A DNA stretch of 64,000 nt from a virus. Its lineage: Duplodnaviria; Heunggongvirae; Uroviricota; Caudoviricetes. A model generated the notes under the pieces. It made no database searches. It was not told where the DNA came from and worked only from the letters and a program-made list of their open reading frames with translations. Below, piece after piece: positions 18,205 through 61,284 of this stretch. The translations under genes were made by a program, and so were the position numbers. Position 1 is the stretch's first letter; each line of letters starts with the position of its first letter. The stretch spans positions 11,528 to 75,527 of IMG/VR virus record IMGVR_UViG_3300028832_000129. One strand, given 5' to 3'.

Positions 18205-18223
18205 GATTTATGCTATATTTACC
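18205..18223 (+). promoter_or_regulatory. Phage promoter motif, variant TTTATGCTATATTTACC.
   Basis: Member of the recurrent TTTTGCTATATTTGG family. Lies in the AT-rich divergent intergenic region upstream of the + strand early-type genes. Confidence 0.5.
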
Positions 18224-18238
18224 AGAGAGGGTTCATCT

Positions 18239-18505
18239 ATGAATGCCAGGATTGAAGACTTTGCAGCAGATTACGTGGTCGTCCCGCTCTTCTCGGCGGG
18301 CAGTTACGGAATCGTCAACGTGAACCGCGGCGACATGACCGACAAGGAATGGGCCGTATGGAACCGCGCACGCACTGCCCCGGAAATCAAGGAAGCCATC
18401 AACAAGGCAGCTCGCCCGTCGGAAATCCCGGGAAGGGTGATTGCTGTCCTAGACGAAAGAGGAATACCGAGATGCCTTACAAATCAGGAACGTCCTATTA
18501 TGTAA
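18239..18505 (+). CDS. Hypothetical protein, 88 aa.
   Basis: First ORF after the promoter motif. Overlaps the start of the next gene. Confidence 0.35.
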   Translation: MNARIEDFAADYVVVPLFSAGSYGIVNVNRGDMTDKEWAVWNRARTAPEIKEAINKAARPSEIPGRVIAVLDERGIPRCLTNQERPIM

Positions 18506-19311
18506 CCGACAAGGACTGCGAGACTGCCTTCGCGCAGTGCAAGGCGTGCGAGTTCGTGTCCGACAACAAGAACTACAGGTCCATTGTCGAGAGCACGTAC
18601 CTAACTGTCCGCGATACGGATGACATCAACGCGTCGTGCGGAAGGCTCACCGATGCTGTCAGGAACCACCTGAACCAGTATTACCCAGTGGTGGACTGGA
18701 ACCAGTACACGCATATCCTGTCGGTATACGCCGGGATGCTCCGGTGGGTCAACATGGTCGCACACGTGTGCGAGTACATCGACCGCACGCACAGGATTGG
18801 CGAGGCGAAGAAGATGCTCGCCTGGTCGGCCACAAGGCTCACCTCGTTCGAGGCCGGCAGCGACTTCGTGCAGAGGTTCCTCGACGAGTTCCACATCCAG
18901 TGCGACGGGCATCGCGAGGAAGTTGTCAGGATGTACGCAATCGCCATCCTTGTCGGCCTCATCGGCCACGAGCTCGGCCACGCGTGCCTCGGTCACTACG
19001 GCCAGCCGGACCAGAACTCGATTTCCAGGAACAACGAGCGCTGCGCCGACATGTTCGCCTCCTCGGTCGCCCAGTCAATCGGCAACGGGTACGCCGGCGC
19101 AATCGGCGCCGTGGTGCTCGACGTGTCGTTCATGTGGCTCGCCGGGAAGCATTCCGCATACGTGACCAACGGCAGCGCCAAGGACAACAAGTTCATGTCG
19201 CACCCGGTGTCCATCGACCGAGTGAAGGCTTTCGTCGAGTCCTTCAACACGGTGCTGGTAACGTCGCCCGTGACGGCCAAGATGCTCATGAAGCTCACGA
19301 AGGATGCATAG
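18471..19311 (+). CDS. Putative Zn-dependent metallopeptidase with an HExxH motif.
   Basis: ATG at 18471 (MPYKSGTSYY) preceded by GAGGAATA. LIGHELGHACLGH is an HExxH zinc-binding motif, as in ImmA/IrrE-like peptidases. Confidence 0.55.
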
Positions 19312-19789
19312 CATGGCTTTCGCCGACGTAACAGTAAGCAAGTTCACCGTACAGTACATGCTCAAGGACCTTGAGAGGGACATGCCGACCATGCTCCCGC
19401 TCAAGGCGTATTCCGTCGACTTGACCCTGGAAGTTCCCGACGAGCTTTCCCAGTATCTCCCGGCGTACGTCAAGGGTTTCCAGGGGTTGGACCCGAACGC
19501 CGCGGAGGCCAGGGTAATCCCCGAATACAGCGCACCGTCGGAAGTGGTGAAGAAGTGGAAGAAGATTCTCACCAAGGAGTACCCGGACGCGTTCAACGCC
19601 AAGCAGACCAAGCCCGACATGGTAATCGACTGCGCCATCAGCTGTACGCTGGAGGACGCAATCAAGGACGCCCTGGAGGAACTGTGGGACAAGAGCCTGG
19701 CCGAGTCGCTCAAGGCGGTACCCGACGTACCTGACGGATACAGGATAGGGGCCAGGTACATCCACCTGGTCGATTGGAACGTGAAATGA
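19304..19789 (+). CDS. Hypothetical protein, 161 aa.
   Basis: Intact ORF. A terminator follows. Confidence 0.5.
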   Translation: MHSMAFADVTVSKFTVQYMLKDLERDMPTMLPLKAYSVDLTLEVPDELSQYLPAYVKGFQGLDPNAAEARVIPEYSAPSEVVKKWKKILTKEYPDAFNAKQTKPDMVIDCAISCTLEDAIKDALEELWDKSLAESLKAVPDVPDGYRIGARYIHLVDWNVK

Positions 19790-19812
19790 CACAAGGCCGC
19801 CCCGGGACGGCC
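19784..19812 (+). terminator. Rho-independent terminator.
   Basis: GGCCG-ccccggga-CGGCC hairpin plus TTTTGATTT. Confidence 0.55.
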
Positions 19813-19844
19813 TTTTGATTTAGTTTAAATGGAGAGGAAATCCG

Positions 19845-20672
19845 ATGCACGAATTTTTCGAAAGAGTTGACAACGCGTTCGGCATGATTAAGGCCGATAC
19901 GAAGTGGAATACGTTCACCATCAACGCGGTGAAGCTGCTTGGCGTGAACAAGCTGGTGGAGTCATACATTCCGCCGTTTGATTCTGATGCGCAGGCACCG
20001 ATAACCGCACAGAAGATGTCTGCCGAGCAAGGCAAGACGGTAACCGCCGAGGAAGTGAAGGCCATGTGGAAGCGCAAGGCAAAGATTTCCACCGAGCTCG
20101 GCGTCAGGGTACACTCGTACATCGAAGCCGCCATGGCAAACAAGTTCTACAGGTACGACGATGCTTCCATCAAGGAGGCATTCCCTAACGATACGGAAGA
20201 CCCCATAAGGGAACGCTACAACCGCATCATTCTCCAGGTAGACCAGTTCCGCGAGTCTATCCGGGGCAAGCTGATTCCTGTTGTTTCCGAACAGGTCATC
20301 GGTTCTCCCAAGTACATGGTGTGCGGAATCGTCGACCAGATTTTCTGGAACAAGAAGGCGAACGAGTTCCAGATTTGGGACTGGAAGTCCAACGAGAAGT
20401 TCAACCTCGACTCGAATTTCAAGTTCAATCCGCCGTTCGGGCATCTCGCCAACTGCGAATACCACAAGTATTCCATGCAGCTCTGCATGTACAAGCACCT
20501 GTTCACCGAAGCCACGGGCATTCCTATCGGCAAGTGCTACCTGTGCTGGTTCTCCAGCGAGGCACCCACGCAGCAGATGTTCCCGGTGCAGGACTTCAGC
20601 AACGAGGTGACGCAGATGCTGGCCATGCGTGCGCAGCAGCTCGGCCTAGTCGACCAGGGGAGTGTGTTCTAA
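19845..20672 (+). CDS. PD-(D/E)XK superfamily nuclease, RecB/Cas4/YqaJ-like.
   Basis: CGIVDQIF (motif II Asp), IWDWK (D-x-K) and QLCMYK (QxxxY) in canonical order. Confidence 0.55.
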   Translation: MHEFFERVDNAFGMIKADTKWNTFTINAVKLLGVNKLVESYIPPFDSDAQAPITAQKMSAEQGKTVTAEEVKAMWKRKAKISTELGVRVHSYIEAAMANKFYRYDDASIKEAFPNDTEDPIRERYNRIILQVDQFRESIRGKLIPVVSEQVIGSPKYMVCGIVDQIFWNKKANEFQIWDWKSNEKFNLDSNFKFNPPFGHLANCEYHKYSMQLCMYKHLFTEATGIPIGKCYLCWFSSEAPTQQMFPVQDFSNEVTQMLAMRAQQLGLVDQGSVF

Positions 20673-23522: not shown

Positions 23523-24431
23523 TCAACCTGTAATGAATCCAATGAAGTATCGTTTGTTTTCTTCATAATATTTTTCCCATATATCGATAACTGCCTGCAC
23601 ATGTTTCTTTTCTACGTTATCCATCTTATGGATACAATCGGTGTATGGTGATGCGAGTGCAACATTATCGGCTCCTATATCAGCTATTACCTCATATTCG
23701 TTGCTTTTGCCTGCGCGAGCTACCCATTCGGTTAACATATAGTCTGCCCATCCAAGCAAGGTTTTGTTTTCAATCTTGTTGTTTGGGTGGTCCATGCCAG
23801 TATTGAAAGCCAGAATCTTAAGATTTCCATTATATTCTGACCGTTTTAGACCGGCGTTCAGCACGGCGATTGGCGAATTTGCCCAGCATCCACCGTCAAT
23901 ATATGATTGTCCATCCTTTATGACAACGTCAAAATAGGACGGAGCGGCAGTGCTGGTCAGAATAGCCAACCATTTGTCCGTATCGGTATCACCTAAATCC
24001 CATACTTTTTCTACGCTTTTTCCATTGGTGTGTGTAGTTGGAATAAATATAGGTTTTTTCCAATCGGAAACTTTCCCAGTAAACTTAGATTTTAGTATTT
24101 TAATGAGATTAGTGTTGTCATATGTTGGACATGTAGGTTGTACCCGTTTGTACCATGGATATTTTGTGAATATCTTCCCTAGGTTATTGTAATACAGGTC
24201 GAATAGGTCATGCGCTGAATATCCCTCGTCTAGTCCACCCGCAATGATGGCCCCGGTTGATGTACCGGCAAATGCGATTGCAATATCACCCAGCTTTTTG
24301 CCGATGTCCTGTTCGAGCCTACACATGAAGGCAAGTGGGCCGATACCCAGTGCGCCGCCACCGTTTACGCTGATAGCTATATTCTTCATAATTATACCCC
24401 TGTTTTCTTGCAGTTTATTCGGGTGCCGCAT
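23523..24431 (-). CDS. Patatin-like phospholipase (PNPLA family).
   Basis: GGGALGIG oxyanion motif, AGTSTGAIIAG (GxSxG nucleophile elbow) and DGGCWANSP (catalytic DGG). Alternative start at the internal Met (24389). It is the only minus-strand gene here. Confidence 0.75.
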   Translation of the reverse strand: MRHPNKLQENRGIIMKNIAISVNGGGALGIGPLAFMCRLEQDIGKKLGDIAIAFAGTSTGAIIAGGLDEGYSAHDLFDLYYNNLGKIFTKYPWYKRVQPTCPTYDNTNLIKILKSKFTGKVSDWKKPIFIPTTHTNGKSVEKVWDLGDTDTDKWLAILTSTAAPSYFDVVIKDGQSYIDGGCWANSPIAVLNAGLKRSEYNGNLKILAFNTGMDHPNNKIENKTLLGWADYMLTEWVARAGKSNEYEVIADIGADNVALASPYTDCIHKMDNVEKKHVQAVIDIWEKYYEENKRYFIGFITG

Positions 24432-24461
24432 AAACTATGGATATCGAAGTGGACGGTTGCC

Positions 24462-25922
24462 ATGGACGTATTGAGAGAATTGCTGAGTGAAATCCCGGGA
24501 AACACATTGTGCCGCAATGTACTTACCGAGGCATACTGCGCCCTGTTCGAGGACGTGGCCTCAGTAGCCACACACAAGTCCAAGAACGTTATCCGCAGCC
24601 TGTTCCCGCAGCTTGCATCCAGATGGGATGACATTGCCGTGGACGACGCCGGGAACCCCGTGCTGACCATGAGCGGGAAGCAGCAGACATACATCGAGTA
24701 TTTCGAGCGCACAATCAGGAACATGTTCTTCCATGACGGTGCGAACCAGAAGTTCGAACCGGGGGTCACCAGGATTGCATACGGGGAACTCAAGCTGGAG
24801 AATCGTGGACAGGACAGCCGGAAGCTGGCTTCACTCAAGAAGATTGTCAAGCTGATTTCCGAAGGGCACGCCGGCGAGTATGACGGCGACCTCAACGGCA
24901 TGTCCTACGATGAACTGGAGACGCGGTTCGGCACTGTCGTGCAGAAGGCCGACGACGAACTCAAGGAGAAACTCGCATCGGCTGATTACCAGGCAAGCGA
25001 CTACGTAATCAAGGAGATTCCGGATTACAAAAGCGCGACGAAATTCTTCAAGTACACTAACCCGGATTCCCCGTGGTGCATCACCCACATGGAGAACATG
25101 TGGCGTTCGTACACCGCCGACGGGATGAACAGGGTATATTTCGCGTACAGGCCGAACTTCAGGCGGATGAAACCCGTAAAGGGCCCGGACGCGCCGCTAG
25201 ACAGCTACGGATTGTCGCTCATATCCATCATAGTAGACCCGTGGGGCACGCTGCGGGCGGTGACGACCCGGTGGAACCATGCCAACGGCGGTTCGGACCA
25301 GGCGATGGACGCCACCCAGCTGTCCAACGTCCTCGGGGGGAACGTGTTCGAGCTGTGCCCGCCCACGGCAATGCCGGAACGGCATGTCGAGCGCATCGAC
25401 AACGATTCGATACGCATCGGCGACCAGGTATGGATGAGCCACAACCTGCAGATGCGCACGAACAGGAGGCGCGGGATAGTCCACGTCGGCGACGAGACCT
25501 ACTTTACCTGGAATGCCGCAATGGAAGTGGCTGCCGCGTACGGAAACGGCTGGCGGCTCCCTACCATGGACGACTGGGACAAGCTCATAGAGACATGCGG
25601 CGGTTATAAAAAGGCGGGGCTCAACCTCAAGTCGACCGAAGGATGGAGACCGGGCGTCGATGACGAAAACGGAAACGGGTTCGACACGTACGGGTTCGAC
25701 GCGAAACCGGCCGGAAAGTACAACCGCTATCATGGTCGTAGGGGCGTGGGATGTAAGCGGCACTTCGCCTTCTTCTGGACCAGTGACAGGTGTGAAGACA
25801 GTTTCGAGTGGGCCCGCTATGTTGAATTAAATTACCTTGACACTGGGGCCAGTACTAGCATAGGGAAACTCAGTGGTACGGACATGGTCGGACTGTCGGT
25901 CCGTCTTGTCAGGAATGCGTAG
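24462..25922 (+). CDS. FISUMP-domain protein, paralog 1.
   Basis: C-terminus ...YFTWNAAM...GWRLPTMDDWDKLIE..GG..AGLNLKSTEGW..NGNGFDTYGFDAKPAGKY...FFWTSD...GLSVRLVRNA matches the Fibrobacter succinogenes major paralogous (FISUMP) domain. The N-terminal ~300 aa are paralogous to 29042..31648 (RIAYGEL, RWNHAN, ELCPP). The start is moved to the ATG at 24462 to avoid overlap with the patatin gene. Confidence 0.6.
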   Translation: MDVLRELLSEIPGNTLCRNVLTEAYCALFEDVASVATHKSKNVIRSLFPQLASRWDDIAVDDAGNPVLTMSGKQQTYIEYFERTIRNMFFHDGANQKFEPGVTRIAYGELKLENRGQDSRKLASLKKIVKLISEGHAGEYDGDLNGMSYDELETRFGTVVQKADDELKEKLASADYQASDYVIKEIPDYKSATKFFKYTNPDSPWCITHMENMWRSYTADGMNRVYFAYRPNFRRMKPVKGPDAPLDSYGLSLISIIVDPWGTLRAVTTRWNHANGGSDQAMDATQLSNVLGGNVFELCPPTAMPERHVERIDNDSIRIGDQVWMSHNLQMRTNRRRGIVHVGDETYFTWNAAMEVAAAYGNGWRLPTMDDWDKLIETCGGYKKAGLNLKSTEGWRPGVDDENGNGFDTYGFDAKPAGKYNRYHGRRGVGCKRHFAFFWTSDRCEDSFEWARYVELNYLDTGASTSIGKLSGTDMVGLSVRLVRNA

Positions 25923-25947
25923 TCCGCCCGTCATGAAATTATGGAAG

Positions 25948-25970
25948 GTCGCCGCCGGGCGGCCTTTTTG
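25948..25970 (+). terminator. Rho-independent terminator fused to the promoter motif.
   Basis: GC palindrome GCCGCCgGGCGGCC plus TTTTT, running directly into TGCTATATTTGG. Confidence 0.55.
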
Positions 25971-25980
25971 CTATATTTGG
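25964..25980 (+). promoter_or_regulatory. Phage promoter motif CTTTTTGCTATATTTGG.
   Basis: Exact family member, 5 nt upstream of the ligA start. Confidence 0.55.
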
Positions 25981-25984
25981 GGAT

Positions 25985-28093
25985 ATGATAGACTTCAAGC
26001 AGTATGCAGAGATGTGCGACGTTCTCACCCAATGGGCAAGGGAATACGCCGCTGGCACGCCGTCCGTACCGGACGACGTATACGACAAGAATTACATCCT
26101 CCTCAAGGAATTCGAGGCGGCAAACCCCAGTGTCATCCTGGATACCTCGCCAACGCGCCACGTGGAGGACGGGGCTGACGGATTCCGCAAGGTGAAGCAC
26201 GAAATCCCGATGATTTCAATCGCCAACTCCAACGGTATCGAGGAGACCCGCGAATGGGCCACCATGATGTTCAACAACGGAGTCAAGCGTCTGGAAGGCG
26301 AATACAAGCTGGACGGCCTGAGCCTAGCATTGAAGTTCAAGGATGGCCAGCTGGTCGATGCCGTTACCCGCGGCAAGGACAACATCGGCGACTCCGTGTT
26401 CGAGAATGCGCTCCGCGTCAAGGGTGTGCTCACTAAGATTCCCTGGCTCGGCGAGGTGGAAATCCGTGGCGAGACCGTATGGAAATACGCTGACTTCGAA
26501 CCAATCAACGACCAGCTCATTGCCGAGGGGAAGAAGGCCTTCGCCAACCCCAGGAACGGCGCATCGGGTACGCTGAAGTCCCATGACCCGGACGAGGTAG
26601 AATCCCGTGGTCTGTCGTTCGTTGCATATCTCATCGTCAAGGGAAGCCCCAACCGCTTCCAGGATACCGACATCATGCAGTTGCAGGAGTTCGGTTTTGA
26701 AGTACCGGAACACTGGGTTGCCGAGACTGTAGACGAAGTAGTTGAGCTTGCCGAGAGGATGCGCGAGAAGCGTTTCGAACAGCCCTATCCCATTGACGGC
26801 GTAGTGCTGAAGGTGGACGACAAGGAAGACCAGAAGCGCTTCGGATACACCGCGAAGTCCCCGAACTTCTACCGTGCATACAAGTTCCCGCCGGAGGAAA
26901 AGGAGACCGAGCTGCTTGACATCGAGCAGTCCATCGGCATGTCCGGCGCAATCACTCCCGTCGCCATCATCAAGCCGGTGCATCTGGCAATGACGACGGT
27001 ATCGCGCTGTTCCCTGCACAACTGGGACCTCGTCGACTATCTCGGCCTGCACAAGGGTTGCCATGTAGTAATCCGTAAGGCCGGCGAGATTATCCCGGAA
27101 CTGGTCAAGTGTACGGAGACCGACCGTTCCAAGGATACCTACGAAGTCGAACGTACCAAGTGCGACAAGGACAAGATTCCGCATGTCAAGCCGTGGGTTC
27201 CCACGAATGATACGGAGAAGGCATATGAACGCTACCTCCGTCCGGTTACCTGCCCGTGCTGCGGCGGGGAACTGAAGTGCCAGGTGAACAATGAAGGCAA
27301 GGAACTGGTCGCCTGGGTATGCTCCAACGAGGAATGCCGTACACAGATTGGCGGCAAGCTCGCCAACTTCGTATCCCGTGAATGCATGAACATCATGGGT
27401 ATCGGCGAGTCGATAGTGGAACAGCTGCTGGAGGCAGGCAAGCTCCGCTTCTTTACGGACTTCTATACGTTGACCATACAGGACATCATGGACGCATGCG
27501 GCAAGACTGAAGCCGGTGCGAAGAAACTCCTGCAGAGCATCGACAAGTCGAAGGGAAACTACCTCCATCAGCTTATCGAGGGCTTCTCCATTCCTGGCCT
27601 AGGTCACCAGGTAGCCCCGGCCGTGGCCAAGTGTGTCCATGATGCCGGTGGCTTCATCCGTATCTATCAGGATGGCGACCCTACCGGGTTCATCGACGAC
27701 TTCTGCTACCGTGCCCAGAAGGCCGGCATCTCCCCGGTAATCGTCGGAAAGTTCTGTGAGTTCGTCACCAAGTATGAGGGTGCCCTTACCGAGTTCGCTA
27801 CATGGGGTGTCGCCCAGAACGTGAAGGAAGTGCAGTCCGCGAAGCTCGCCGGGAAGGTGTGCATCATGACCGGCACGTTCGAGAAGCTCGACCGAGACGT
27901 GTTCAAGGACATGGTCGTTGCCAACGGCGGCACCATCTGTTCTTCCATTACAAAGAAGTGCAACGTGGTGCTCATGGGAGACAACGCCGGGCCGTCCAAG
28001 GTACAGAAGATTGACGAGCTCAGGAAGGCCGGCCAGGAGATTACGGTGTACACCCCGGAAACCCTGCAGCAGTTCCTGGACCTGCTCAAGTGA
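25985..28093 (+). CDS. ligA: NAD-dependent DNA ligase.
   Basis: Adenylation motif EYKLDGLS (KxDG). Cys4 zinc finger CPCCGG...CSNEEC. C-terminal BRCT-like segment KVCIMTGTF...VVLMGDNAGPSKVQKIDELRKAGQEI. 702 aa. Confidence 0.9.
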   Translation: MIDFKQYAEMCDVLTQWAREYAAGTPSVPDDVYDKNYILLKEFEAANPSVILDTSPTRHVEDGADGFRKVKHEIPMISIANSNGIEETREWATMMFNNGVKRLEGEYKLDGLSLALKFKDGQLVDAVTRGKDNIGDSVFENALRVKGVLTKIPWLGEVEIRGETVWKYADFEPINDQLIAEGKKAFANPRNGASGTLKSHDPDEVESRGLSFVAYLIVKGSPNRFQDTDIMQLQEFGFEVPEHWVAETVDEVVELAERMREKRFEQPYPIDGVVLKVDDKEDQKRFGYTAKSPNFYRAYKFPPEEKETELLDIEQSIGMSGAITPVAIIKPVHLAMTTVSRCSLHNWDLVDYLGLHKGCHVVIRKAGEIIPELVKCTETDRSKDTYEVERTKCDKDKIPHVKPWVPTNDTEKAYERYLRPVTCPCCGGELKCQVNNEGKELVAWVCSNEECRTQIGGKLANFVSRECMNIMGIGESIVEQLLEAGKLRFFTDFYTLTIQDIMDACGKTEAGAKKLLQSIDKSKGNYLHQLIEGFSIPGLGHQVAPAVAKCVHDAGGFIRIYQDGDPTGFIDDFCYRAQKAGISPVIVGKFCEFVTKYEGALTEFATWGVAQNVKEVQSAKLAGKVCIMTGTFEKLDRDVFKDMVVANGGTICSSITKKCNVVLMGDNAGPSKVQKIDELRKAGQEITVYTPETLQQFLDLLK

Positions 28094-28604: not shown

Positions 28605-28624
28605 GAGTTTTTTGCTATATTTGG
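28605..28624 (+). promoter_or_regulatory. Phage promoter motif TTTTTTGCTATATTTGG directly upstream of a tRNA.
   Basis: Exact motif. tRNA-Gly(CCC) begins 8 nt downstream. Confidence 0.55.
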
Positions 28625-28964: not shown

Positions 28965-28980
28965 TTTTTGCTATATTTGG
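28965..28980 (+). promoter_or_regulatory. Phage promoter motif TTTTTGCTATATTTGG.
   Basis: Exact motif ~60 nt upstream of the 29042 gene. Confidence 0.5.
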
Positions 28981-29041
28981 GGTAGGCCATACGTGCCTAC
29001 CCTTTATTATATTGTCAACACCATAACTATCAAGGTTATAA

Positions 29042-32015: not shown

Positions 32016-32431
32016 CGAAAATTTTACACATTTTTCTTGCATTTTCCCTTGCCATTTCATTCGTTTTTATCTACTATTGCTATAAACATTACGTCAAAGG
32101 AATTAAAGATGCTAAAGCAACTCAACAATCTGTGCAAATTAACAGCTGCGGCCCAGGACGCACGTTATTTTGGCATTTTGGGTTTCGCAGGAAAAGCGGA
32201 GGCTGATGCAACTTAGTTCCAGGTAGACGAAAAGGTTTACGAGAGACGAAAAGGGCGGTTGCATCAGCAGGCAACCGCCCTTTCCGTTTAACCATTCGGG
32301 GGCGCATGTTCCAAGGTGGCGAATGATGCTGGCAGCATCGTTGAGAAGGATTCGATTTCCTTCGCTTCCATTAAAGCAAGGCTCGAGCAGCCTTGCGGTA
32401 GATTGACAGTTCGGATGCGATATGTTTTATG

Positions 32432-35587: not shown

Positions 35588-35629
35588 TCTATTTGACCAT
35601 GTTTAGCAGAAAGGACTCCACTCGGGTCG

Positions 35630-35645
35630 ATTTTTGCTATATTTG
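35630..35645 (+). promoter_or_regulatory. Phage promoter motif TTTTTGCTATATTTGG.
   Basis: Exact motif at the start of a ~450-nt ORF-free structured region. Confidence 0.5.
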
Positions 35646-35703
35646 GTTAGCAAGAATTTCGTGCCAAGATATAAACAAAAACCACCAGGTTGACGTTTTT
35701 GCA

Positions 35704-35720
35704 GAAAATTGCTATATTTG
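35704..35720 (+). promoter_or_regulatory. Phage promoter motif AAAATTGCTATATTTGG.
   Basis: Second motif copy 60 nt downstream of the first. Followed by the repeated 20-mer AGATTGACAGTTCGGATGCG at 35751. Confidence 0.5.
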
Positions 35721-36088
35721 GTACACCGGGAAGCCCGTGAGGTTCCCCAGAAGATTGACAGTTCGGATGCGTTTCCTTTGCAGTTCGGGTTAAACTGCGC
35801 GTTGCAACCAACGATAGGTTGCTCGCATTTTGAAGATTTTACGAAATCTTACCCCGGCGGGAGGCGTCCCGCCCGAAGCCACGCGCTTTGGCGTGGTGGA
35901 ATACCTTTAGCATAAACGTGAGTGCGCCCGGGTTCGCAACCGGGAGGTGTCTTCTGCTCAGGAAGGCAAGGGAAATTAACTAATGAGTTCGGCGTGAGCC
36001 GGGACGGGCGGACGTATAGGGCTAGTTCCATTGCCCTTCTCCTTTTTGGTTGTGTCGAGGTCCCCCGTCCCGCTCGCGCCGTTCGCAT

Positions 36089-38776: not shown

Positions 38777-39135
38777 GGGGGTGCTTGGTTTCGACTGGGC
38801 ATCGGACTGTGGAGACCTCACACGAAGTTGGTCTGTGGCTTCGTAAAAACGGACCGAAAAGATAAATGCTGACAATGCATTCGCCTACGCCGTTGCTGCT
38901 TAATCGGTAGCACGCCGTTGCCCGGGTCAAGTGGGATGAATAAAGCCCGGGACCAAGTAGATAAGTCCCGAATTTAGCCGTGAGTTACTGGTCGTAGACC
39001 GGCTATCTTACACTGGACCAGGACCCCTCAAGGATACATCTCCCCGGGCAACAGGTCAGGGCCCAAAACGATGGATTGTGATACGGTTGAAACGGAATGG
39101 CGTTTAGGACAGGGGTTCGACTCCCCTCACCTCCA
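38777..39135 (+). ncRNA. ssrA: tmRNA (transfer-messenger RNA).
   Basis: 5' GGGGGTGCTTGGTTTCGACTGGGC parallels E. coli GGGGCTGATTCTGGATTCGACGGG. 3' tRNA-like domain GGACAGGGGTTCGACTCCCCTCACCTCCA (T-arm plus acceptor pairing with the 5' GGGGGTG). Internal tag reading frame GCT GAC AAT GCA TTC GCC TAC GCC GTT GCT GCT TAA = ADNAFAYAVAA-stop at 38868-38903. Length 359 nt. Confidence 0.8.
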
Positions 39136-39380
39136 CGAAATTTACGTCCTGCTGCCGGTAGGACCGCCCTTCAGCACGGGGTAGAACGCGAGTACGACCA
39201 TGGGTGTGGCCGGCTTGCGCGAAGGCGGTGGACTAAAATCTTGGCACGATGCCATATCACCAATCCCACTCCGGGAAAGGTTGCAGGCGTGTAGCCGCGT
39301 ACCGGCCACGCGAGCGTAAAGCGGTAAGGGCCCGCTAATAGGCCCAGTGTGTTTGAAAAGTCTCGACGGTGATGAGGTAA

Positions 39381-39397
39381 TTGTCCTATATTTGAAT
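39381..39397 (+). promoter_or_regulatory. Promoter motif variant TTGTCCTATATTTGAAT.
   Basis: Matches the TATATTTG core inside the ORF-free region between the tmRNA and the next tRNA block. Confidence 0.35.
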
Positions 39398-42835: not shown

Positions 42836-43669
42836 ATGAAAGTCCTATTCATATCAGACCTGCACCTCGACTCATATACGTGTCTTACCGACAACGAGTC
42901 CATACTGCAGACGGCCTACGCCGTATTCGTCAACCGGTTCCTTACTCCGGCTGACGCTATTTGTATAGCGGGGGACCTGGCAAACTATGAAGGACTCGAG
43001 GTATCGTTCCTCAAATTCATCGCTCCACTTTACAAGAAGGTATATTTCGTACACGGTAACCATGACCTTGTAGTCAAGAGGGAATATCCCGGTAGACGCT
43101 TTGATACAAGCGAGGAACGCAAGGCATACGTGCAGGAAAACCTATCAGGACTAAAGAATGTCTTTATACTTGATGGCACCGTGTCCAATGATGGGATTGT
43201 TGGCGGAACAATGGGCATGTGCGACCTGTCCTATCGGCCACCCGAGGAGGAATCGTTCGACGCGTACGATTTCTGGTGCAAGAGATGGTTCGACGGACGC
43301 ACGTGGAACTACTGCAACCAGGTGCTCCCGGATATCATGCGACGGGAATTCGACAACCTGGAACGGATATGCATGGCGAAGCCGAAGATAGTCATGACCC
43401 ATTTTTGCCCGATGCAGATGGGCGTGGCGGACGAGTTCAAGGCGGACCCGAAGACCTCGCTGTTCTATTTCGAGGCTGCGAAATACCTGGACATGCTCGA
43501 TGACGGAACGATATGGGTATGCGGCCATACCCATGGGCAGCATGACGTTACGCATGTCAATTCCAGCGGTAACCGCATCAGAATCATATGCAATCCACTG
43601 GGCATGCCGGAGGAAAAGAACGCATTTGCCCTATGCAGGGATGCTGGAGTGTATCTTGTGGACGTCTAA
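42836..43669 (+). CDS. Calcineurin-like metallophosphoesterase.
   Basis: Motifs FISDLHLD (DxH), IAGDLAN (GD) and FVHGNHD (GNHD/E) in canonical order. 277 aa. An RNA-end healing role is inferred from the neighbouring genes only. Confidence 0.7.
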   Translation: MKVLFISDLHLDSYTCLTDNESILQTAYAVFVNRFLTPADAICIAGDLANYEGLEVSFLKFIAPLYKKVYFVHGNHDLVVKREYPGRRFDTSEERKAYVQENLSGLKNVFILDGTVSNDGIVGGTMGMCDLSYRPPEEESFDAYDFWCKRWFDGRTWNYCNQVLPDIMRREFDNLERICMAKPKIVMTHFCPMQMGVADEFKADPKTSLFYFEAAKYLDMLDDGTIWVCGHTHGQHDVTHVNSSGNRIRIICNPLGMPEEKNAFALCRDAGVYLVDV

Positions 43670-43677
43670 CGGCGTCC

Positions 43678-43695
43678 ATTTTTGCTATATTTGTA
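43678..43695 (+). promoter_or_regulatory. Phage promoter motif ATTTTTGCTATATTTGTAG.
   Basis: Follows the weak hairpin GGACGTC-taac-GGCGTCC. Lies 14 nt upstream of the 43709 gene. Confidence 0.5.
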
Positions 43696-45893: not shown

Positions 45894-45913
45894 AAAAATA
45901 TACTATATTTGGG
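45894..45913 (+). promoter_or_regulatory. Promoter motif variant AAAAATATACTATATTTGGG.
   Basis: ACTATATTTGG core. A second degenerate copy TTTGCTTTTATATGG lies at 45936-45950, just before the ATG at 45961. Confidence 0.4.
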
Positions 45914-45960
45914 ATGTGCACCATGCGCACACCCCTTTGCTTTTATATGGAATTTACGAC

Positions 45961-49767: not shown

Positions 49768-49785
49768 CTTTTACTATATTTGCTG
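49768..49785 (+). promoter_or_regulatory. Phage promoter motif variant CTTTTACTATATTTGCTG, placed to drive the IscB leader RNA.
   Basis: ACTATATTTG core ~300 nt upstream of the iscB ATG with no ORF in between. Confidence 0.5.
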
Positions 49786-50088
49786 TAGGACCCATGGAGT
49801 AATCAACTACTCACCGGCTAAAGACTGGTGGGTTTGAGGAAACCCCTCGAACCCATAGTTGATTAGGCTAAGTGATAGGAGGCAACTCCTTGAACTACGT
49901 TGATAGAATCATGGCACCCCGGAATGTTTGTCCAAGTTCCCCGCTCTGCCGTATGTCATTAAAAGTCCTGATGGGTAGGGACGGTGTGGCATACCTAGTA
50001 AGTTCTTCCAACATTGCCGATGGACACCCACAGGGAGAAATCCCTGCATTACCTATTAAGTTAGGTTAAGACAAAAAGGAAACGATAG
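49786..50088 (+). ncRNA. Putative omega-RNA (OMEGA guide RNA) scaffold upstream of iscB.
   Basis: ~300-nt ORF-free, promoter-preceded leader with multiple stable stem-loops (e.g. AATCAACTA...TAGTTGATT; GGGTTTGAGGAAACCCC) immediately 5' of and abutting iscB. This is the canonical position of IscB omega-RNAs. Confidence 0.5.
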
Positions 50089-51357
50089 ATGGTATATGTT
50101 TTGAGCATTGATGGCAAACCGCTGATGCCAACCGAACGGTTTGGCAGGGTTCGCCGTCTGTTGAAAGCACGTAAGGCCTTTATCGTAAACTACCACCCGT
50201 TCACAATCAAGCTAACCTACAAGTGTCCCGACCGGACACAGGAGGTATCACTGGGTGTAGATGCAGGCAGCAAGCACGTAGGCCTGTCTGCTACCACAAA
50301 GAAGAAAGTATTGTTCGAGGCTCAACTGGAATTACGGAATGACATCGTAAAGAAGCTGGCTACCAGACGCGAGTTCCGTAGGACTAGACGCTACCGGAAA
50401 ACTAGATATCGTAAAGATAGATTTCTTAACCGTACCAAGAAGGAAGGATGGCTCGCTCCATCTGTTAAGCACAAGGTATGGGCACACCTATGGAACATCG
50501 TTAGAATCAAACGAATACTGCCTATAAGCAAGATAACCATAGAGGTGGCACAGTTCGATACCCAGTTGCTCAAGGCTCAAGAACTAGGCTTGCCGGTACC
50601 CCAAGGCACGGACTACCAGAGAGGCGAACAGCTTGGATTCTGGAATGTAAGGGAGTACGTGCTGTTCCGTGATGACCACAAATGCCAATGCTGCAAGGGA
50701 AAGTCGGGAGATTCCGTTCTCAACGTGCATCATATAGAGTCTCGGAAGACCGGAGGGAATGCGCCCAACAACCTTGTGACTCTTTGTGAGACTTGCCACA
50801 AGAAATATCATAAGGGTGAAATCAGGCTCCCTGCATCTATCAGGCGTGGTGCAAGTTATAAGGATGCTGCATTTATGGGCATTATCCGAAAGGAAGTATA
50901 CCGAATGTCTCGGATAGTGAACAATACGCTTACATGTCCTGTAGACATTACCTATGGCTACATCACCAAGAATACCAGAATCCGGTGTGGATTGCCTAAA
51001 GAACATACTATTGATGCTAGATGCATCAGCGGAAATCCGATGGCTAAAAGCAATGGAACAACTTATATAATTAAGCCTTTGAGACACAATAACCGACAGC
51101 TACACAAGGCATCTATCTTATCTGGAGGCATACGTAAGAACAACCAGGCTCCTAAAGAAGTGTTCGGTTTCCGCATTATGGATACCGTACTATACAATGG
51201 ACAGGTATGCTATGTCAATGGCCGTAGGGCGTCCGGCTATTTCTCCCTGGTAGATATCTACGGGAAAGTTTTAACCAACTCTGTCAGTTACAGGAAACTG
51301 GCCAGAATCAACCACAATAACTACATCATAGGAGGCGCAATTCCTCTCACCCACTAA
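50089..51357 (+). CDS. iscB: IscB, RNA-guided RuvC/HNH nuclease (OMEGA system; IS200/IS605-type Cas9 ancestor).
   Basis: N-terminal PLMP domain MVYVLSIDGKPLMPTERFGRVRRLLKARKAFIV. RuvC-I LGVDAGSKHVGLS. Arg-rich bridge RREFRRTRRYRKTRYRKDR. RuvC-II ITIEVAQFD. HNH CQCCKG...VHHIESRKTGGNAPNNLVTLCETCHKKYH. RuvC-III HTIDARCISGN. 422 aa. Confidence 0.85.
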   Translation: MVYVLSIDGKPLMPTERFGRVRRLLKARKAFIVNYHPFTIKLTYKCPDRTQEVSLGVDAGSKHVGLSATTKKKVLFEAQLELRNDIVKKLATRREFRRTRRYRKTRYRKDRFLNRTKKEGWLAPSVKHKVWAHLWNIVRIKRILPISKITIEVAQFDTQLLKAQELGLPVPQGTDYQRGEQLGFWNVREYVLFRDDHKCQCCKGKSGDSVLNVHHIESRKTGGNAPNNLVTLCETCHKKYHKGEIRLPASIRRGASYKDAAFMGIIRKEVYRMSRIVNNTLTCPVDITYGYITKNTRIRCGLPKEHTIDARCISGNPMAKSNGTTYIIKPLRHNNRQLHKASILSGGIRKNNQAPKEVFGFRIMDTVLYNGQVCYVNGRRASGYFSLVDIYGKVLTNSVSYRKLARINHNNYIIGGAIPLTH

Positions 51358-54064: not shown

Positions 54065-54073
54065 GAATCCTGG

Positions 54074-54099
54074 ACCCGCGCCGCACGCGCGGGTTTTTG
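54074..54099 (+). terminator. Rho-independent terminator fused to the promoter motif.
   Basis: ACCCGCGCC-gcac-GCGCGGGT plus TTTTT, running into TGCTATATTTGGC (motif at 54094-54110). Confidence 0.6.
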
Positions 54100-54152
54100 C
54101 TATATTTGGCATAACGATACAATACAATTCACGCCCTTCAGGGCGTGGGTAG

Positions 54153-54491
54153 TTGACCATATCAGTCAAGGAGTTACACATGTACGCAATCATTCGTTCC
54201 ACCACAAAGCATGGGACGCATGCGCAGGAGCGCCCCCAGATGATATGCCACGGGGACTTCAAGAGCCTCCTGGTTCCGCGCCTCTGCGAGCAGATTGAGG
54301 GTTGCCTCAAGAAGGGGGCGTCGCTCTATGCCAGTATTCCCGGCGCTGCCGAGGAGAGGATTACTCCATCCAACAATATCTACGGGGTTATCTCGGCAAT
54401 CGACCGCGGATGCGACCATATCGTCATTGATGTTCCCGGTGAATACGAGAGACAGTCGTACAGCGTGCATTTCGTAATCGAGGAACTATAG
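54153..54491 (+). CDS. Hypothetical protein, 112 aa.
   Basis: Intact ORF after the promoter motif at 54094-54110. Confidence 0.45.
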   Translation: MTISVKELHMYAIIRSTTKHGTHAQERPQMICHGDFKSLLVPRLCEQIEGCLKKGASLYASIPGAAEERITPSNNIYGVISAIDRGCDHIVIDVPGEYERQSYSVHFVIEEL

Positions 54492-54515
54492 TTCTGCAGA
54501 CACCGTCCTGCGGGA

Positions 54516-54531
54516 CTTTTGCTATATTTGC
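54516..54531 (+). promoter_or_regulatory. Phage promoter motif CTTTTGCTATATTTGC.
   Basis: Exact core. The 54571 gene starts ~40 nt downstream. Confidence 0.5.
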
Positions 54532-56420: not shown

Positions 56421-56438
56421 CTTTGCTATATTTGAACT
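56421..56438 (+). promoter_or_regulatory. Phage promoter motif GCTTTGCTATATTTGAAC.
   Basis: Core TGCTATATTTG 12 nt upstream of the 56450 gene. Confidence 0.5.
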
Positions 56439-57492: not shown

Positions 57493-57500
57493 GATATGCT

Positions 57501-58109
57501 ATGTTTGGAATAACTGGAAGAAAACCCGTCAACAAGCAGGCCCCGAAGGACGCCACCGACAAGGCCAAGGAAATACTGGCACGTGCACACGAGATGTGGA
57601 GGGAAATTTCCCCGGTGTGCACGGTGGACGCCACGAAGGACGACGAGTGGAACACCTACCTGATGTGGCGAGGCAACAAGATGGCCATGCTCACGCTCGG
57701 CGTGAACGAGGTCGCTATTACGTACAAGATGGAGATAAACCCTCCGACGATTAGGCTGTCCGGCGTGAGCATGCTCGACGAGGAGGCCGGCCAGAAGAAG
57801 TACGGGAAGTTCTGCGGCGAGGTCGCTTACGTGGAGAACATCATCAGGACGTGGCCGACCGTCCTGTCCGACACGGTCGGCAACCTGAGGCTGATGGTGG
57901 ACAAGGGCGAGTACGGACGCATAGAGTTCTGCTCCACCGAGGTGAAGTACGCCAGGATAACCCAGTATTCCGACAAGGAGAAGCACGGCAGATGGGGATA
58001 CGTAGATTCAAGAGAAATGCTGAAGTACACCCTGAAGATAACGGGTCAGATAGACAGCATCGACGACAGGAAGCTCGAGAAGGAGCTGGACAGCCTGATG
58101 GAGCTGTGA
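57501..58109 (+). CDS. Hypothetical protein, 202 aa.
   Basis: Intact ORF. Confidence 0.5.
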   Translation: MFGITGRKPVNKQAPKDATDKAKEILARAHEMWREISPVCTVDATKDDEWNTYLMWRGNKMAMLTLGVNEVAITYKMEINPPTIRLSGVSMLDEEAGQKKYGKFCGEVAYVENIIRTWPTVLSDTVGNLRLMVDKGEYGRIEFCSTEVKYARITQYSDKEKHGRWGYVDSREMLKYTLKITGQIDSIDDRKLEKELDSLMEL

Positions 58110-58906: not shown

Positions 58907-59365
58907 CTATTTCTTCTTGCGCCGCTGTTCCTGGTAGCGCTGCCGGTAATCGTCGCGGGAATCCCGCATGTAGTCCAGCTTGTCACTGTAGCTGTCGCGG
59001 GTCTTGTAAGCCTTCTCCTTGTCCTTTACGGCGCGGTCGAACAGCTTGCCGTACTTGGTTATCTCCCGGAGAATCGCCATGCGCATGCTGTCGATGCGGT
59101 CCATGGTAGCCCGGTCCAGACCCTGGGAGAACGACGGCGTGTAGCCGGTGGTCATCCTGTTGTTGAAGCGCTGTCTGCGGACGCCTTCCGACTCGTAGAA
59201 CTTCTCGAAGATGCCGTTCACCTTGTTGGCCAGCTCCTGCGAAGGAGTCTGCTTGCGGCCGAACAACCAGCTCAGCAGTCCCTCCTGGAGGGGCTTCCCG
59301 GAAACGGCGGCATATCCTTCGATAAGTGCCTGTTCTGTGTTGTTGTCCATGCTGTCGGTGTCCAT
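58907..59365 (-). CDS. Hypothetical protein, 152 aa, on the minus strand.
   Basis: One of few minus-strand genes. Basic RQRYQEQRRKKK C-terminus. Confidence 0.5.
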   Translation of the reverse strand: MDTDSMDNNTEQALIEGYAAVSGKPLQEGLLSWLFGRKQTPSQELANKVNGIFEKFYESEGVRRQRFNNRMTTGYTPSFSQGLDRATMDRIDSMRMAILREITKYGKLFDRAVKDKEKAYKTRDSYSDKLDYMRDSRDDYRQRYQEQRRKKK

Positions 59366-59415
59366 CTGAGTACCTTGGGGTCGGTTAACCGGTAGTTTAT
59401 GCCGCCGGAGAATCT

Positions 59416-59433
59416 ATTTTTTGCTATATTTGG
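59416..59433 (+). promoter_or_regulatory. Phage promoter motif ATTTTTTGCTATATTTGG.
   Basis: Exact motif ~30 nt upstream of the 59466 gene. Confidence 0.5.
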
Positions 59434-59465
59434 TTTAACACAATCTTTCTAAGAGGATATTCACT

Positions 59466-59696
59466 ATGAAAATCAACCTTATCAATACAGCAAAGGCCGC
59501 CGCAATCGTCACGGCCGTCGTAATCACAGTCAAGGCGGTCAAGGCCGTAGTGGCCAAGCTCAAGGCCAAGAAGGTCACCTCCGAGGATATCGAGGAAGAG
59601 TCCATCACTTCCGCCAAGATTTTCTCCGGCAACGAACGCGAGGACTGCGACTGCGGAGCCTGCGACTGCGCCGCAGAGGAAGCATTCGGCCGCTAG
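59466..59696 (+). CDS. Small protein, 76 aa, with an N-terminal hydrophobic helix and a C-terminal Cys cluster.
   Basis: AGAGGATATTCACTATG RBS. AAAIVTAVVITVKAV helix. CDCGACDC. Confidence 0.4.
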   Translation: MKINLINTAKAAAIVTAVVITVKAVKAVVAKLKAKKVTSEDIEEESITSAKIFSGNEREDCDCGACDCAAEEAFGR

Positions 59697-59778
59697 CGGG
59701 TACCTCCTGCAGTGCAGGAAACTGGACGGGACCGCTTCTGCGGTCCCTTCATGATAAACTATGCAATAAGAGGACAAT

Positions 59779-60588
59779 ATGGCTATAACCGTTATCTATT
59801 CCGACATGGGCGACGTAGACTGCGCCAGCATCCCCCTTCTCTGGAAGGACGTACCGGACGTTCACGTAATGCGCCTGGCACGCGACACCGACTACACCAA
59901 GGACGACATCAGGGAAGCAATCCGTAACGAGGACGACACCCTCATCATGTGCGGCCACGGGACTCCCCGGGGCCTCCTGGGCTACGTCTGCGAGGAGCGC
60001 GAGGAGCGCATCCCGACCGCCGGCTCCTGGGGCTACACGCCCGGCAGCAGGCAGCGCGGCAGCCTGACATCCCGTTACGGGAGCGGCAGGATGATGAGCA
60101 TGTCCGAGATGTACGCTAGGCTCAAGCACGACGAGAATCTGCCGGGTGCAATCGGCCCGATGGTCGACCGCAAGCCGGCCCCCAAGCCAGTGGACAAGCC
60201 GGCCGAGAAGCCGGAACAGAAGACCCGCATCGTGAAGTACCGCCACATGGACAACGCCGTCGACGCGTCCATGGTGAACGACATCCACGCCGAGAGGGTT
60301 ATCGCCGTATGGTGCCACGCCACCTCGTTCGCCGAGGCGCACCACCTGTACGGGTTCTGGTCCTCGATGTTCATCTCCAACAGCGGAGAGGCCCGCATGT
60401 GCGGGTACAACGGGGTGACCCAGGAGACAATCGTCGCCGAGACCTACAAGTTCTGGCGCGACGCGAACACCCTCCTGAAGAACGACGTGCCGCTCGACGA
60501 GTGGATTGACCGCCTGATGGAGATGGGCAACCTGAACTACCCGACCACCAGGTTCAACTACGAGGGGCTCCGGTACTACCCGCGCTAA
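59779..60588 (+). CDS. Hypothetical protein, 269 aa.
   Basis: Intact ORF. A terminator follows. Confidence 0.5.
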   Translation: MAITVIYSDMGDVDCASIPLLWKDVPDVHVMRLARDTDYTKDDIREAIRNEDDTLIMCGHGTPRGLLGYVCEEREERIPTAGSWGYTPGSRQRGSLTSRYGSGRMMSMSEMYARLKHDENLPGAIGPMVDRKPAPKPVDKPAEKPEQKTRIVKYRHMDNAVDASMVNDIHAERVIAVWCHATSFAEAHHLYGFWSSMFISNSGEARMCGYNGVTQETIVAETYKFWRDANTLLKNDVPLDEWIDRLMEMGNLNYPTTRFNYEGLRYYPR

Positions 60589-60612
60589 AGTAAATTGAAA
60601 GTTTACAACAAA

Positions 60613-60650
60613 ATGCCTGACGAAAGTCGGGCATTTTTGCTATATTTGGG
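60613..60650 (+). terminator. Rho-independent terminator fused to the promoter motif.
   Basis: ATGCCTGAC-gaaa-GTCGGGCAT plus TTTTT, running into TGCTATATTTGGG (motif at 60634-60650). Confidence 0.6.
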
Positions 60651-60670
60651 TTACAACCAAAGGGAAAACT

Positions 60671-61231
60671 ATGTACGAGAAGAATTCACATACCGGACTG
60701 GACCTGTTCCTGCTCATAGTAATACTGGCCGGCTCTTTCGTGATTACGCGATGCGAGAACGTCCTAGCGGACGCCGACTTGCAGAAGGTGTCGCCTACCG
60801 CCAAGTCCGACTACCTGGAGTACAACACGGAGACCTGGTTCGAGCAGAAGGTAAAGGGTGGCAACCGCATGAAGAAGGCTGTGTACGCCACGTATACCTC
60901 CATAGCGAAGGAGAACGGCATTACCGTCTATGATGCGGTGAAGGGAAGCAGGGCGAAGTTCGCGGGGCAGTTTAGGAACAGCTTCCGCAGCTTCAGTAAC
61001 TTCCTTTCGTTACCCAACGTGCAGAACGTGTACCGCACGGAAAGCTTTGGTACTCCCGCGGTAATCGTGCATTTCACCTGGGAGGAATGCAGCGGCTCCG
61101 GGGATGACCGGCACTGTCACACTGAGCACGACGAAGTTACCATCCCGGAAGTCAATCTCCCGGAACAGGAAGTGGAGCACGACGGACAGGTCGACATCGA
61201 TTACGAAGGATTCGACATGGTGGTAAATTAA
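60671..61231 (+). CDS. Hypothetical protein, 186 aa.
   Basis: Intact ORF after the promoter motif. Confidence 0.5.
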   Translation: MYEKNSHTGLDLFLLIVILAGSFVITRCENVLADADLQKVSPTAKSDYLEYNTETWFEQKVKGGNRMKKAVYATYTSIAKENGITVYDAVKGSRAKFAGQFRNSFRSFSNFLSLPNVQNVYRTESFGTPAVIVHFTWEECSGSGDDRHCHTEHDEVTIPEVNLPEQEVEHDGQVDIDYEGFDMVVN

Positions 61232-61248
61232 TTTTTACAATAAATCTA

Positions 61249-61284
61249 TTGACAACGTCCGTAGATTAGGGTATATTTGTAGTT
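61249..61284 (+). promoter_or_regulatory. Promoter: TTGACA-N17-TATATT overlapping the GGGTATATTTGTAG motif variant.
   Basis: TTGACA at 61249-61254, a 17-nt spacer, TATATTTG at 61272-61279. The 61317 gene lies downstream. Confidence 0.4.

Follow-up and report, generated by a model that had tools for sequence, protein, structure and literature searches.

This study concerns a short motif, TTGCTATATTTG, which recurs on the + strand between genes in a 64,000-nucleotide stretch of a tailed phage (Caudoviricetes; IMG/VR record IMGVR_UViG_3300028832_000129, positions 11,528 to 75,527), hereafter called the window. The window has a GC content of 55%, and almost every gene lies on its + strand. Its RNA genes comprise 33 tRNAs, a transfer-messenger RNA (tmRNA, 38777-39138) and a HEARO RNA, i.e. 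an IscB omega RNA (49802-50031), with an open reading frame (ORF) of the RRXRR/HNH IscB-like type on its 3' side. Recognisable proteins are an NAD-dependent DNA ligase (25985-28093), a CCA-adding enzyme, PTH2, a kinase-like, a DUF932 and a patatin-like protein, and one protein with a FISUMP domain. Proteins homologous to the ligase and to the FISUMP protein make up a large family, nearly all of which is carried by metagenomic contigs of up to 170-480 kb, many of them from ruminant gut samples, and the relatives present in IMG/VR measure 171-260 kb. All this places the window in an uncultured rumen giant phage. In a set of 50,697 phage records, the ligase shares at most 33% identity with anything, and an 868-amino-acid (aa) protein encoded next to a copy of the motif had no match.

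An exact 15-mer scan of viral contigs led to some of the relatives. Most contigs gave a single chance match, and only those with two or three matches were true relatives. The comparison set consists of the window and nine relative loci (designated below by L and a number), each oriented by its anchor gene, for a total of 216 kb and 61 motif sites. The ligase of L135 and L140 is 57% identical to that of the window. L134 carries a family-B DNA polymerase and a T4 Y07B-like domain, which are hints of a T4-like kinship.

The repeated motif is real: TATATTT[G/A] was found within 0-10 nt of all 16 positions listed by the initial annotation of the window. With up to two mismatches, TTTTGCTATATTTGG has 12 matches, all on the + strand, where 0.10 are expected, and TATATTTG has 16 (15 on the + strand and one on the - strand) for 1.04 expected. 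The intergenic DNA, delimited with a gene map built from codon usage, amounts to about 9.9 kb at 49% GC. Within it, 15 copies of TATATTTG on the + strand and 12 copies of TGnTATATT were observed, against 0.26 and 0.24, respectively, in dinucleotide-preserving shuffles. Neither word occurs on either strand of the 51 kb of predicted coding DNA, so that the equal frequency inside genes which would have spoken against a promoter was not found. The commonest 9-mer of the window is CTATATTTG, ahead of the words of tRNA T-loops. A weight-matrix scan gave 17 strong matches, all intergenic and all on the + strand (Table 1); the one additional to the 16 listed is the weak copy at 57500, which reads TATGTT where the other 16 read TATATT. 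Four TATATT copies (39387, 45904, 49775 and 61272) are devoid of the TG of TTTTGC. Similarity among copies is confined to about 16 nt, therefore these are independent sites and not copies of a longer repeat. No copy lies between 1 and 18 kb, in a block of large ORFs. As initially proposed, the motif precedes protein genes, a tRNA and the HEARO/omega RNA alike. The proposed distance of 8-60 nt to the next gene holds for most copies, but not for those at 35638, 35713 and 39387, which are followed by 370-450 nt free of annotated genes; for copies 18214 and 45904, it hangs on uncertain start codons.

A promoter function, with TTGCTATATT-T as core, is well supported by the comparison of sequences, and the earlier proposal to that effect is borne out by where the motif lies, by its strand, by its persistence in relatives, and by constant distances to start codons and to a tRNA. 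At 43-84% protein identity between phages, TTGCTATATTT alone stays unchanged in the intergenic DNA 5' of the ligase gene, the tRNA-Gly and the 868-aa gene, and 57 of the 61 sites are on the + strand of the anchor-oriented loci. The ligase ATG lies exactly 7 nt past TATATT in four phages; the seven intervening bases vary (TGGGGAT, TTCAGAT, TGTAGGC, TATGTAT) and end in a pyrimidine. L134 has TATATT-N7-ATG at the first ATG of its DNA polymerase B ORF as well, and none of these sites (window 25972-25987; L133 9988; L134 9988 and 1117; L121 6964) has a Shine-Dalgarno sequence. Because of this conserved spacing and of the missing Shine-Dalgarno site, the mRNA of the ligase, and that of polymerase B in L134, are predicted to be leaderless, transcription starting at the A of the ATG. 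As in the leaderless mRNAs of lambda cI, the start codon stands at the expected transcription start with no Shine-Dalgarno site upstream; unlike for cI, the leaderless state is deduced here only from the TATATT-N7-ATG spacing, and it concerns replication genes. The mature 5' end of tRNA-Gly lies 9-10 nt past TATATT in five phages, and the predicted -1/+1 positions favour T and A across the window copies. Transcription would thus start 7-8 nt after TATATT and produce very short leaders, none at all for the ligase mRNA and 2-3 nt for the tRNA.

The sites read as sigma-70-type extended -10 promoters with lineage-specific preferences (C at -13, T at -6 and G at -5), rather than as the -7 box of Bacteroidota. 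In this layout, the -10 hexamer TATATT would occupy positions -12 to -7 and the extended -10 TG positions -15/-14, with a near-invariant C at -13, a T at -6 and the lineage-specific G at -5. Upstream would stand a T-tract or, where TGn is missing, TTGACA at a distance of 17 nt. TGn was found in 12 of the 16 TATATT copies of the window, as well as in the weak TATGTT copy at 57500, and TGC in 22 of 24 close-relative sites picked by TATATTTG alone. TTGACA (5 or more matches out of 6) is present at a 16-18 nt spacer at 15 of the 61 sites, compared to a background of 2.1%. Four TGn-less sites have a perfect TTGACA (61272 in the window; 6940, 7880 and -1545 in L136), and the promoters of L136 have the form TTGACA-N17-(TGC)TATATT. 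To judge from these sites, the presence of a -35 element where TGn is missing is the classical trade-off between the -35 element and the extended -10. The likeness to extended -10 promoters (TGnTATAAT) therefore extends to the TG placed one base 5' of a TAnnnT hexamer, to the predicted start 7-8 nt after the hexamer, and to a -35 element that is dispensable with TGn and perfect at 17 nt without it. Unlike in the extended -10 consensus, no copy has TATAAT as its hexamer, positions -13 (C) and -6 (T) hardly vary, G at -5 is strongly preferred in this lineage, and a T-run stands 5' of the TG (TTTTGC). Smaller phage contigs reached through their DUF932 protein (L137-L139; 44-49% GC, 45% identity) have TGCTATATTT and TGCTATAATA upstream of genes, therefore the TGC-TATAWT core extends beyond the giant-phage clade.

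The initial annotation had equated the core with the Bacteroidota sigma-A -7 consensus TAnnTTTG, and remarked in passing that TGnTATATT resembles an extended -10; the passing remark proved the better reading. Placed at -12 to -5, the TAnnTTTG box fits 15 of the 17 window copies, and 15 of the 16 intergenic TAnnTTTG matches are TATATTTG. The -7 box of Flavobacterium also spans -12 to -5 (PMC9723704), therefore the two readings agree on the position of every base and disagree only on the flanking bases that count. Here the sequences of the relatives appear decisive. When sites are picked by TGnTATATT alone, positions -6/-5 are TG at 11 of 12 sites in the window and at 22 of 30 in close relatives, and at 0 of 5 in L135 and L140 together and 0 of 5 in L136. 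The variant found in L135 and L140 is TTGCTATATTT[T/C], and at the orthologous ligase promoter of four phages the two positions are TG, TT, TG and TA. The final G of the box thus varies at orthologous sites, is absent from L135/L140 and mostly absent from L136. At -33, where Bacteroidota have TTTG, no window copy has this word. TTG falls in the -33 window (spacer 17-23) of 3 of the 17 copies, in two of them within TTGACA or TTGACG.

Part of the sites are fused to terminators. Strong upstream hairpins were found at copies 25972, 43686, 54101, 54523 and 60641 (dG -14 to -20 kcal/mol, RNAfold), the T-run of the hairpin being the TTTTT of the motif, and weaker ones at three to four others (28616, 35638, 59425, 56427). 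The initial statement that many copies follow a hairpin and a T-run is thus right, strongly for 5 of the 17 and weakly for three to four more, and does not apply to the remaining ones. Four of the six best + strand terminator-like matches between 18 and 58 kb adjoin a motif copy; general promoter and terminator scans over the entire region did not exceed chance, and only these top terminator matches were informative. Since the T-tract is kept in copies with no hairpin, it is the promoter's own as well. In about a third to half of the copies, it would double as the U-run of the intrinsic terminator of the upstream gene, so that a single unit of 40-50 bp would end one transcript and start the next. 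At copies 28972 and 45904, a hairpin and T-run start at the last G of the motif and lie across the predicted start site. The hairpin at 28972 is kept in four phages by means of different sequences, each folded singly, RNAalifold having given a weak signal after misalignment of the arms by MAFFT. Such hairpins could stop upstream read-through, or be a 5' leader structure or an attenuator; possibly, read-through transcripts would terminate there while those started inside the stem escape.

The motif is also found at the borders of genomic modules. Homology with L121 and L134 sets in where the motif does (25966 and 25965, its first base) and runs as far as the ligase stop codon; in the comparison with L121, L134 and L133, further blocks begin at 28609 and 28968. 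The genes beyond are unrelated, and the motif also marks the end of a 780-nt insertion in L133. This suggests recombination at the motif; blast boundaries would stop at a conserved promoter anyway. The closest analogue is the promoter-early stem-loop (PeSL) of T4-like phages (PMC2839356, PMC4122927), cassettes in which stem-loop, promoter, Shine-Dalgarno site and ATG follow in series, in variable non-structural regions and at indel borders (PMC4122927). Here also, a stem-loop stands just 5' of a sigma-70-like promoter, and a Shine-Dalgarno site and the start codon come next. As in PeSLs, most units fall in variable non-structural regions and few in structural blocks (no copy between 1 and 18 kb), and they border the insertions, deletions or replacements by which related phages differ. 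Unlike PeSLs, they are mostly extended -10 promoters with no -35 element, the hairpin occupies the -35 position, and only 5-9 of the 17 copies have a hairpin. PeSLs are known from T4-like phages, and the present phage gives only hints of a kinship with T4.

In the window, the genes behind the motif are those for the ligase, tRNA-Gly, the kinase-like protein and HEARO RNA, and in relatives those for polymerase B (L134) and a sigma factor (L135, L140). Given these genes, the near-consensus sigma-70 grammar, and a separate motif placed before large ORFs and a terminase operon, the motif, hereafter class I, is more likely early or middle than late. The label "middle or late" initially given to it is not supported, as replication, tRNA and sigma genes are driven and the motif is absent from 1-18 kb. 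The separate motif, ATAAACTA (often ATAAACTAcgRAAAA), was met while examining minus-strand promoters. Six intergenic copies are present in the window for 0.91 expected, all gene-sense and 17-29 nt before an ATG. They precede a 1153-aa ORF, a 1497-aa ORF, the FISUMP gene and two genes at about 59.4-59.8 kb, and another one adjoins the class I copy 18214. From these positions, corrected start codons are expected near 8742 for the 1497-aa ORF and near 24462 for the FISUMP gene. In relatives, ATAAACTA stands before FISUMP and patatin genes (L133 4630, 6381 and -6355; L120 4023), and a near copy, TAAACTA, precedes the minus-strand terminase-containing operon of L135. Searches of PHROGs and of PDB sequences gave no function for the genes behind ATAAACTA. 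We propose ATAAACTA as a candidate late promoter class. The late promoter of T4, TATAAATA, is a single element with no -35, as in some phage late classes. ATAAACTA resembles it as an A/T-rich octamer devoid of -35 element and placed some 17-30 nt before large, probably virion-related genes. It differs by its sequence (ATAAACTAcgRAAAA), by the fact that no gp55-like factor was identified, and by genes that have no recognised function.

We found no sigma-factor gene in the 64-kb window, nor any sigma homologue on the parts covered of the genomes of its closest relatives; neither a single-protein scan nor a profile scan of viral contigs returned these relatives, the profile scan being swamped by unrelated sigma genes. 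A sigma-factor gene is present in L135 (2487-3254) and L140 (4001-4762), in both behind a copy of the motif; its product is about 255 aa long and has regions 2 and 4. Its best NCBIfam matches are the RpoS and RpoD models, all below cut-offs. The cellular proteins nearest to it (36-39% identity) are 270 aa long and annotated as primary sigma (RpoD/SigA); those that are named belong to a Fibrobacteria metagenome-assembled genome (MAG) and to other taxa of the Fibrobacteres-Chlorobi-Bacteroidetes (FCB) group, and the homologues have a deletion in region 3 in common. Since the sigma gene itself lies behind the motif, another sigma factor, most simply the host primary one, must read the motif first. 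The motif would then be bound by the bacterial core RNA polymerase carrying a group-1-like sigma, most simply that of the host.

As for the host, the motif by itself does not identify it. A Shine-Dalgarno core was found at -16 to -7 of 35 of the 62 predicted starts (56%), for a background of 18%, and G amounts to 46-49% at positions -11 to -8. Bacteroidota mRNAs are devoid of Shine-Dalgarno sites (PMC6847099; PMC7366714), which are used by Fibrobacteria, Kiritimatiellae, Lentisphaeria and most other phyla (PMC10783764). Because of this usage, of the TTGACA element and of the variable, lineage-specific G, a Bacteroidota host is disfavoured on sequence grounds; the initial annotation had drawn a host in the Bacteroidota/FCB group from the resemblance of the motif. 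A host in the wider FCB group appears possible; FISUMP-domain proteins, of which L133 encodes four consecutively, and the taxonomic leaning of the sigma factor found in relatives (36-39% identity) are weak pointers to it. Other homologues were uninformative: those of the ligase and FISUMP proteins come nearly all from phage-like contigs, and the relatives of IscB among 185,000 genomes share only 46-61% identity and belong to mixed rumen taxa (a Bacteroidales MAG, Selenomonadaceae, Succinimonas, Ruminococcus). We also examined, as a small test, three loci of bacteria carrying the nearest sigma homologues (L141-L143). TGnTAnnnT was not enriched upstream of their genes, and an apparent enrichment of TAnnTTTG (9 for 3.0 expected) was discarded as base composition, the antisense count being 8. 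No promoter consensus for Fibrobacter was found in the literature.

Several other explanations of the motif were weighed. It might be no promoter but an RNA processing site, a terminator tail, a regulator-binding site, a recombination site or a remnant of a mobile element, given that it sits at the borders of modules that differ between relatives and that the T-run of terminators forms part of it. Such functions are extremely improbable for a motif which is asymmetric and strictly gene-sense, stands at conserved distances from start codons and from the 5' end of a tRNA, and has TTGACA at a fixed 17 nt, a DNA-level feature of sigma-70 promoters; moreover, at least eight copies keep the T-tract with no convincing upstream hairpin, and the lack of similarity past some 16 nt speaks against a mobile element. 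A late promoter would be in line with the single-element late classes of some phages, such as TATAAATA of T4, as most window copies have no -35. We consider it very improbable, since class I drives replication, translation-support and sigma-factor genes and is missing from the large-ORF block, where ATAAACTA holds the promoter position, as it does before FISUMP genes and, as a near copy, before the terminase operon of L135. The Bacteroidota reading, i.e. a sigma-A -7 box and a host of this phylum, has more in its favour: copies in the window match TAnnTTTG at the same position relative to the predicted start, this geometry equals that reported for Flavobacterium (PMC9723704), some Bacteroidota have a -33 element that is weak or cannot be detected (PMC7366714), the window lineage strongly prefers T at -6 and G at -5, FISUMP domains are present, and the relatives' phage sigma is nearest to short primary-sigma-like proteins of the FCB group. 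It nevertheless appears quite unlikely, as the G is not conserved, TTTG or TTG at -33 is met essentially as part of a full TTGACA, which many copies of the relatives have at 16-18 nt, the conserved TG at -15/-14 is foreign to the Bacteroidota consensus, the nn of TAnnTTTG is TA in every case, and the phage genes rely on Shine-Dalgarno sites, which Bacteroidota mRNAs do not have.

Class I is, in our view, probably the main non-late (early or middle) promoter class of this giant rumen phage, of the sigma-70 type and read most simply by the host primary sigma, a reading we hold with moderate confidence. Several points weigh against it. Start sites and timing are deduced from the sequence and not from transcripts, and for the ATAAACTA genes the word "late" draws on how large they are and on a single terminase operon, found in a relative. 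Copies of the motif vary much less than a generic host consensus would, the variable TAnnTTTG positions being always TA and none of the hexamers TATAAT; this could mean a dedicated phage factor, and uniformity is also typical of strong phage promoter families. The preference for T at -6 and G at -5 is shared with Bacteroidota and not with ordinary sigma-70 promoters. Finally, the RpoD/RpoS-like sigma of L135 and L140 keeps the -35-reading residues RERIRQ and could read the same grammar. A phage-encoded sigma-70-family factor acting on the host core polymerase, class I being then a phage-specific (middle) class, thus keeps a modest minority chance. Besides the RERIRQ of its region 4.2, the L135/L140 factor has a lysine aligned with E458 of E. 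coli sigma-70 and with K173 of sigma-S, the residue which we take to be linked to a C at -13, so that this lysine would fit the near-invariant C. The motif is conserved across phages whose hosts may differ, and there is a precedent, as jumbo phages with no RNA polymerase of their own often encode sigma homologues thought to direct phage-specific promoters (PMC13282480). Speaking against a phage factor are the empty search in the window and, as a weak negative concerning parts of genomes only, on the closest relatives' contigs, the need for another factor to read first the promoter of the sigma gene in L135 and L140, and the lack in this factor of a histidine aligned to H455 of sigma-70, a contact of the extended -10 TG. 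We also leave a small chance to an undescribed hybrid grammar, in which TTGACA and the extended -10 TG would be combined with a T at -6 and a G at -5 as in Bacteroidota, the reader being a short primary sigma of FCB type (that of the host, e.g. an uncultured Fibrobacterota-like rumen bacterium, or a phage-borne copy), together with the escape from the stem at 28972 and 45904.

Table 1. Predicted class I promoters, adjoining hairpins and ATAAACTA copies in the window (PWM, position weight matrix score; dG in kcal/mol).
Feature	Position	Strand	Remarks
Class I copy ATGCTATATTTA (copy 18214 = TATATTTA)	18210-18221	+	PWM 23.1; divergent gap 18144-18348, 9 nt 3' of ATAAACTA
Terminator-like hairpin, 11 pairs	25943-25968	+	dG -18.3; T-run is the T-tract of the ligase promoter
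Class I promoter, NAD-dependent DNA ligase	25968-25979	+	TATATT-N7-ATG, ATG 25985; spacing also in L133, L134, L121
Class I promoter, tRNA-Gly(ccc)	28612-28623	+	Mature 5' end 10 nt past TATATT; 9-10 nt in five phages
Class I promoter, 868-aa gene (ATG 29042)	28968-28979	+	
Hairpin and T-run from the last G of the motif, across predicted start site	28979-29003	+	dG -12 to -18 in window, L133, L121, L120
Class I promoter, 5' member of a tandem pair (75 nt apart)	35634-35645	+	Weak hairpin 35614-35628 before; pair kept in L133 (19895/19969)
Class I promoter with -35, TTGACG-N17-TGCTATATTTG	35690-35720	+	Followed by ~370-nt conserved noncoding element
Class I copy GTCCTATATTTG, no TGn, TCGACG at 18-nt spacer	39383-39394	+	3' of tmRNA; followed by ~450 nt unannotated
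Terminator hairpin 43658-43679 fused to class I promoter 43682-43693, 89-aa gene (ATG 43709)	43658-43693	+	dG -20.1
Class I copy ATACTATATTTG with immediate hairpin/T-run 45912-45934	45900-45934	+	
Class I copy TTACTATATTTG	49771-49782	+	19 nt 5' of HEARO (IscB omega) RNA 49802-50031
Terminator hairpin 54072-54096 fused to class I promoter 54097-54108	54072-54108	+	dG -17.6
Terminator hairpin 54490-54517 fused to class I promoter 54519-54530, DUF932 gene (ATG 54571)	54490-54530	+	dG -14.2
Class I promoter, kinase-like gene (ATG 56450)	56423-56434	+	Immediately after stop codon of upstream gene
Weak candidate copy ATGCTATGTTTG, uncertain	57496-57507	+	PWM 15.7; overlaps predicted ATG
Class I promoter, 76-aa gene (ATG 59466)	59421-59432	+	Minus-strand ATAAACTA 21 nt upstream
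Terminator hairpin 60610-60637 fused to class I promoter 60637-60648, 186-aa gene (ATG 60671)	60610-60648	+	dG -17.5
Class I promoter, no TGn, perfect -35, TTGACA-N17-TATATTTG, 229-aa gene (ATG 61317)	61249-61279	+	
ATAAACTA copies	3347-3354, 8715-8722, 18197-18204, 24430-24437, 59754-59761	+	
ATAAACTA copy	59393-59400	-	
ATAAACTA variant	18164-18178	-	

A possible degenerate promoter (TTGCCA-N17-TACTAT overlapping TTGCTATAAAC) was noted at 32049-32090, before a small ORF and the first tRNA array; this region is 79-87% identical in L133 and L121. Directly 3' of TTGACG-N17-TGCTATATTTG lies a noncoding element of about 370 nt (35721-36088) conserved in L133, L120 and L134, whose 5' hairpin changes on both sides (GGGAA-N9-TTCCC) and which ends at a tRNA-Glu. 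It is a candidate for a new phage RNA. At a permissive threshold, Rfam gave no match 3' of copies 35638, 35713 and 39387. The 20-mer AGATTGACAGTTCGGATGCG occurs twice, at about 32398-32417, just 5' of tRNA-Ala (32431), and at 35760-35779, within the noncoding element that follows copy 35713.

Other observations concern mobile and repeated DNA. Codon usage is atypical in four ORFs (540 aa, 516 aa, patatin-like and IscB-like; 13199-16374, 23523-24431, 50089-51357), which score 0.02-0.06 per codon compared to 0.3-0.5 for the remainder of the window; this suggests that they were recently acquired. The end of the window (63260-64000, - strand) matches, inverted and at 84% identity, a portion of a TnpB/Cas12f-like gene of L134 (14130-14870). 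This match and the IscB/HEARO unit (49802-51357) indicate that IS200/605-type elements move among these phages. In the L121 locus, nine-base words including GGACCCACC and CACCCCCAT are each found 12-13 times on one strand, which points to a tandem repeat array.

Altogether, class I is a phage promoter family of the sigma-70 extended -10 type, set in PeSL-like terminator-promoter units, and as such an ordinary kind of phage signal. The match to TAnnTTTG alone is an unsafe clue to the host, and it is the comparison with relatives that changed the reading of the motif. If the host is identified, the uniform sites would be a ready-made strong promoter-terminator part for it. For an uncultured clade of giant rumen phages, the motif provides a usable map of transcription units, with promoters, terminators, a probable second (late) class, and replication genes predicted to be leaderless.

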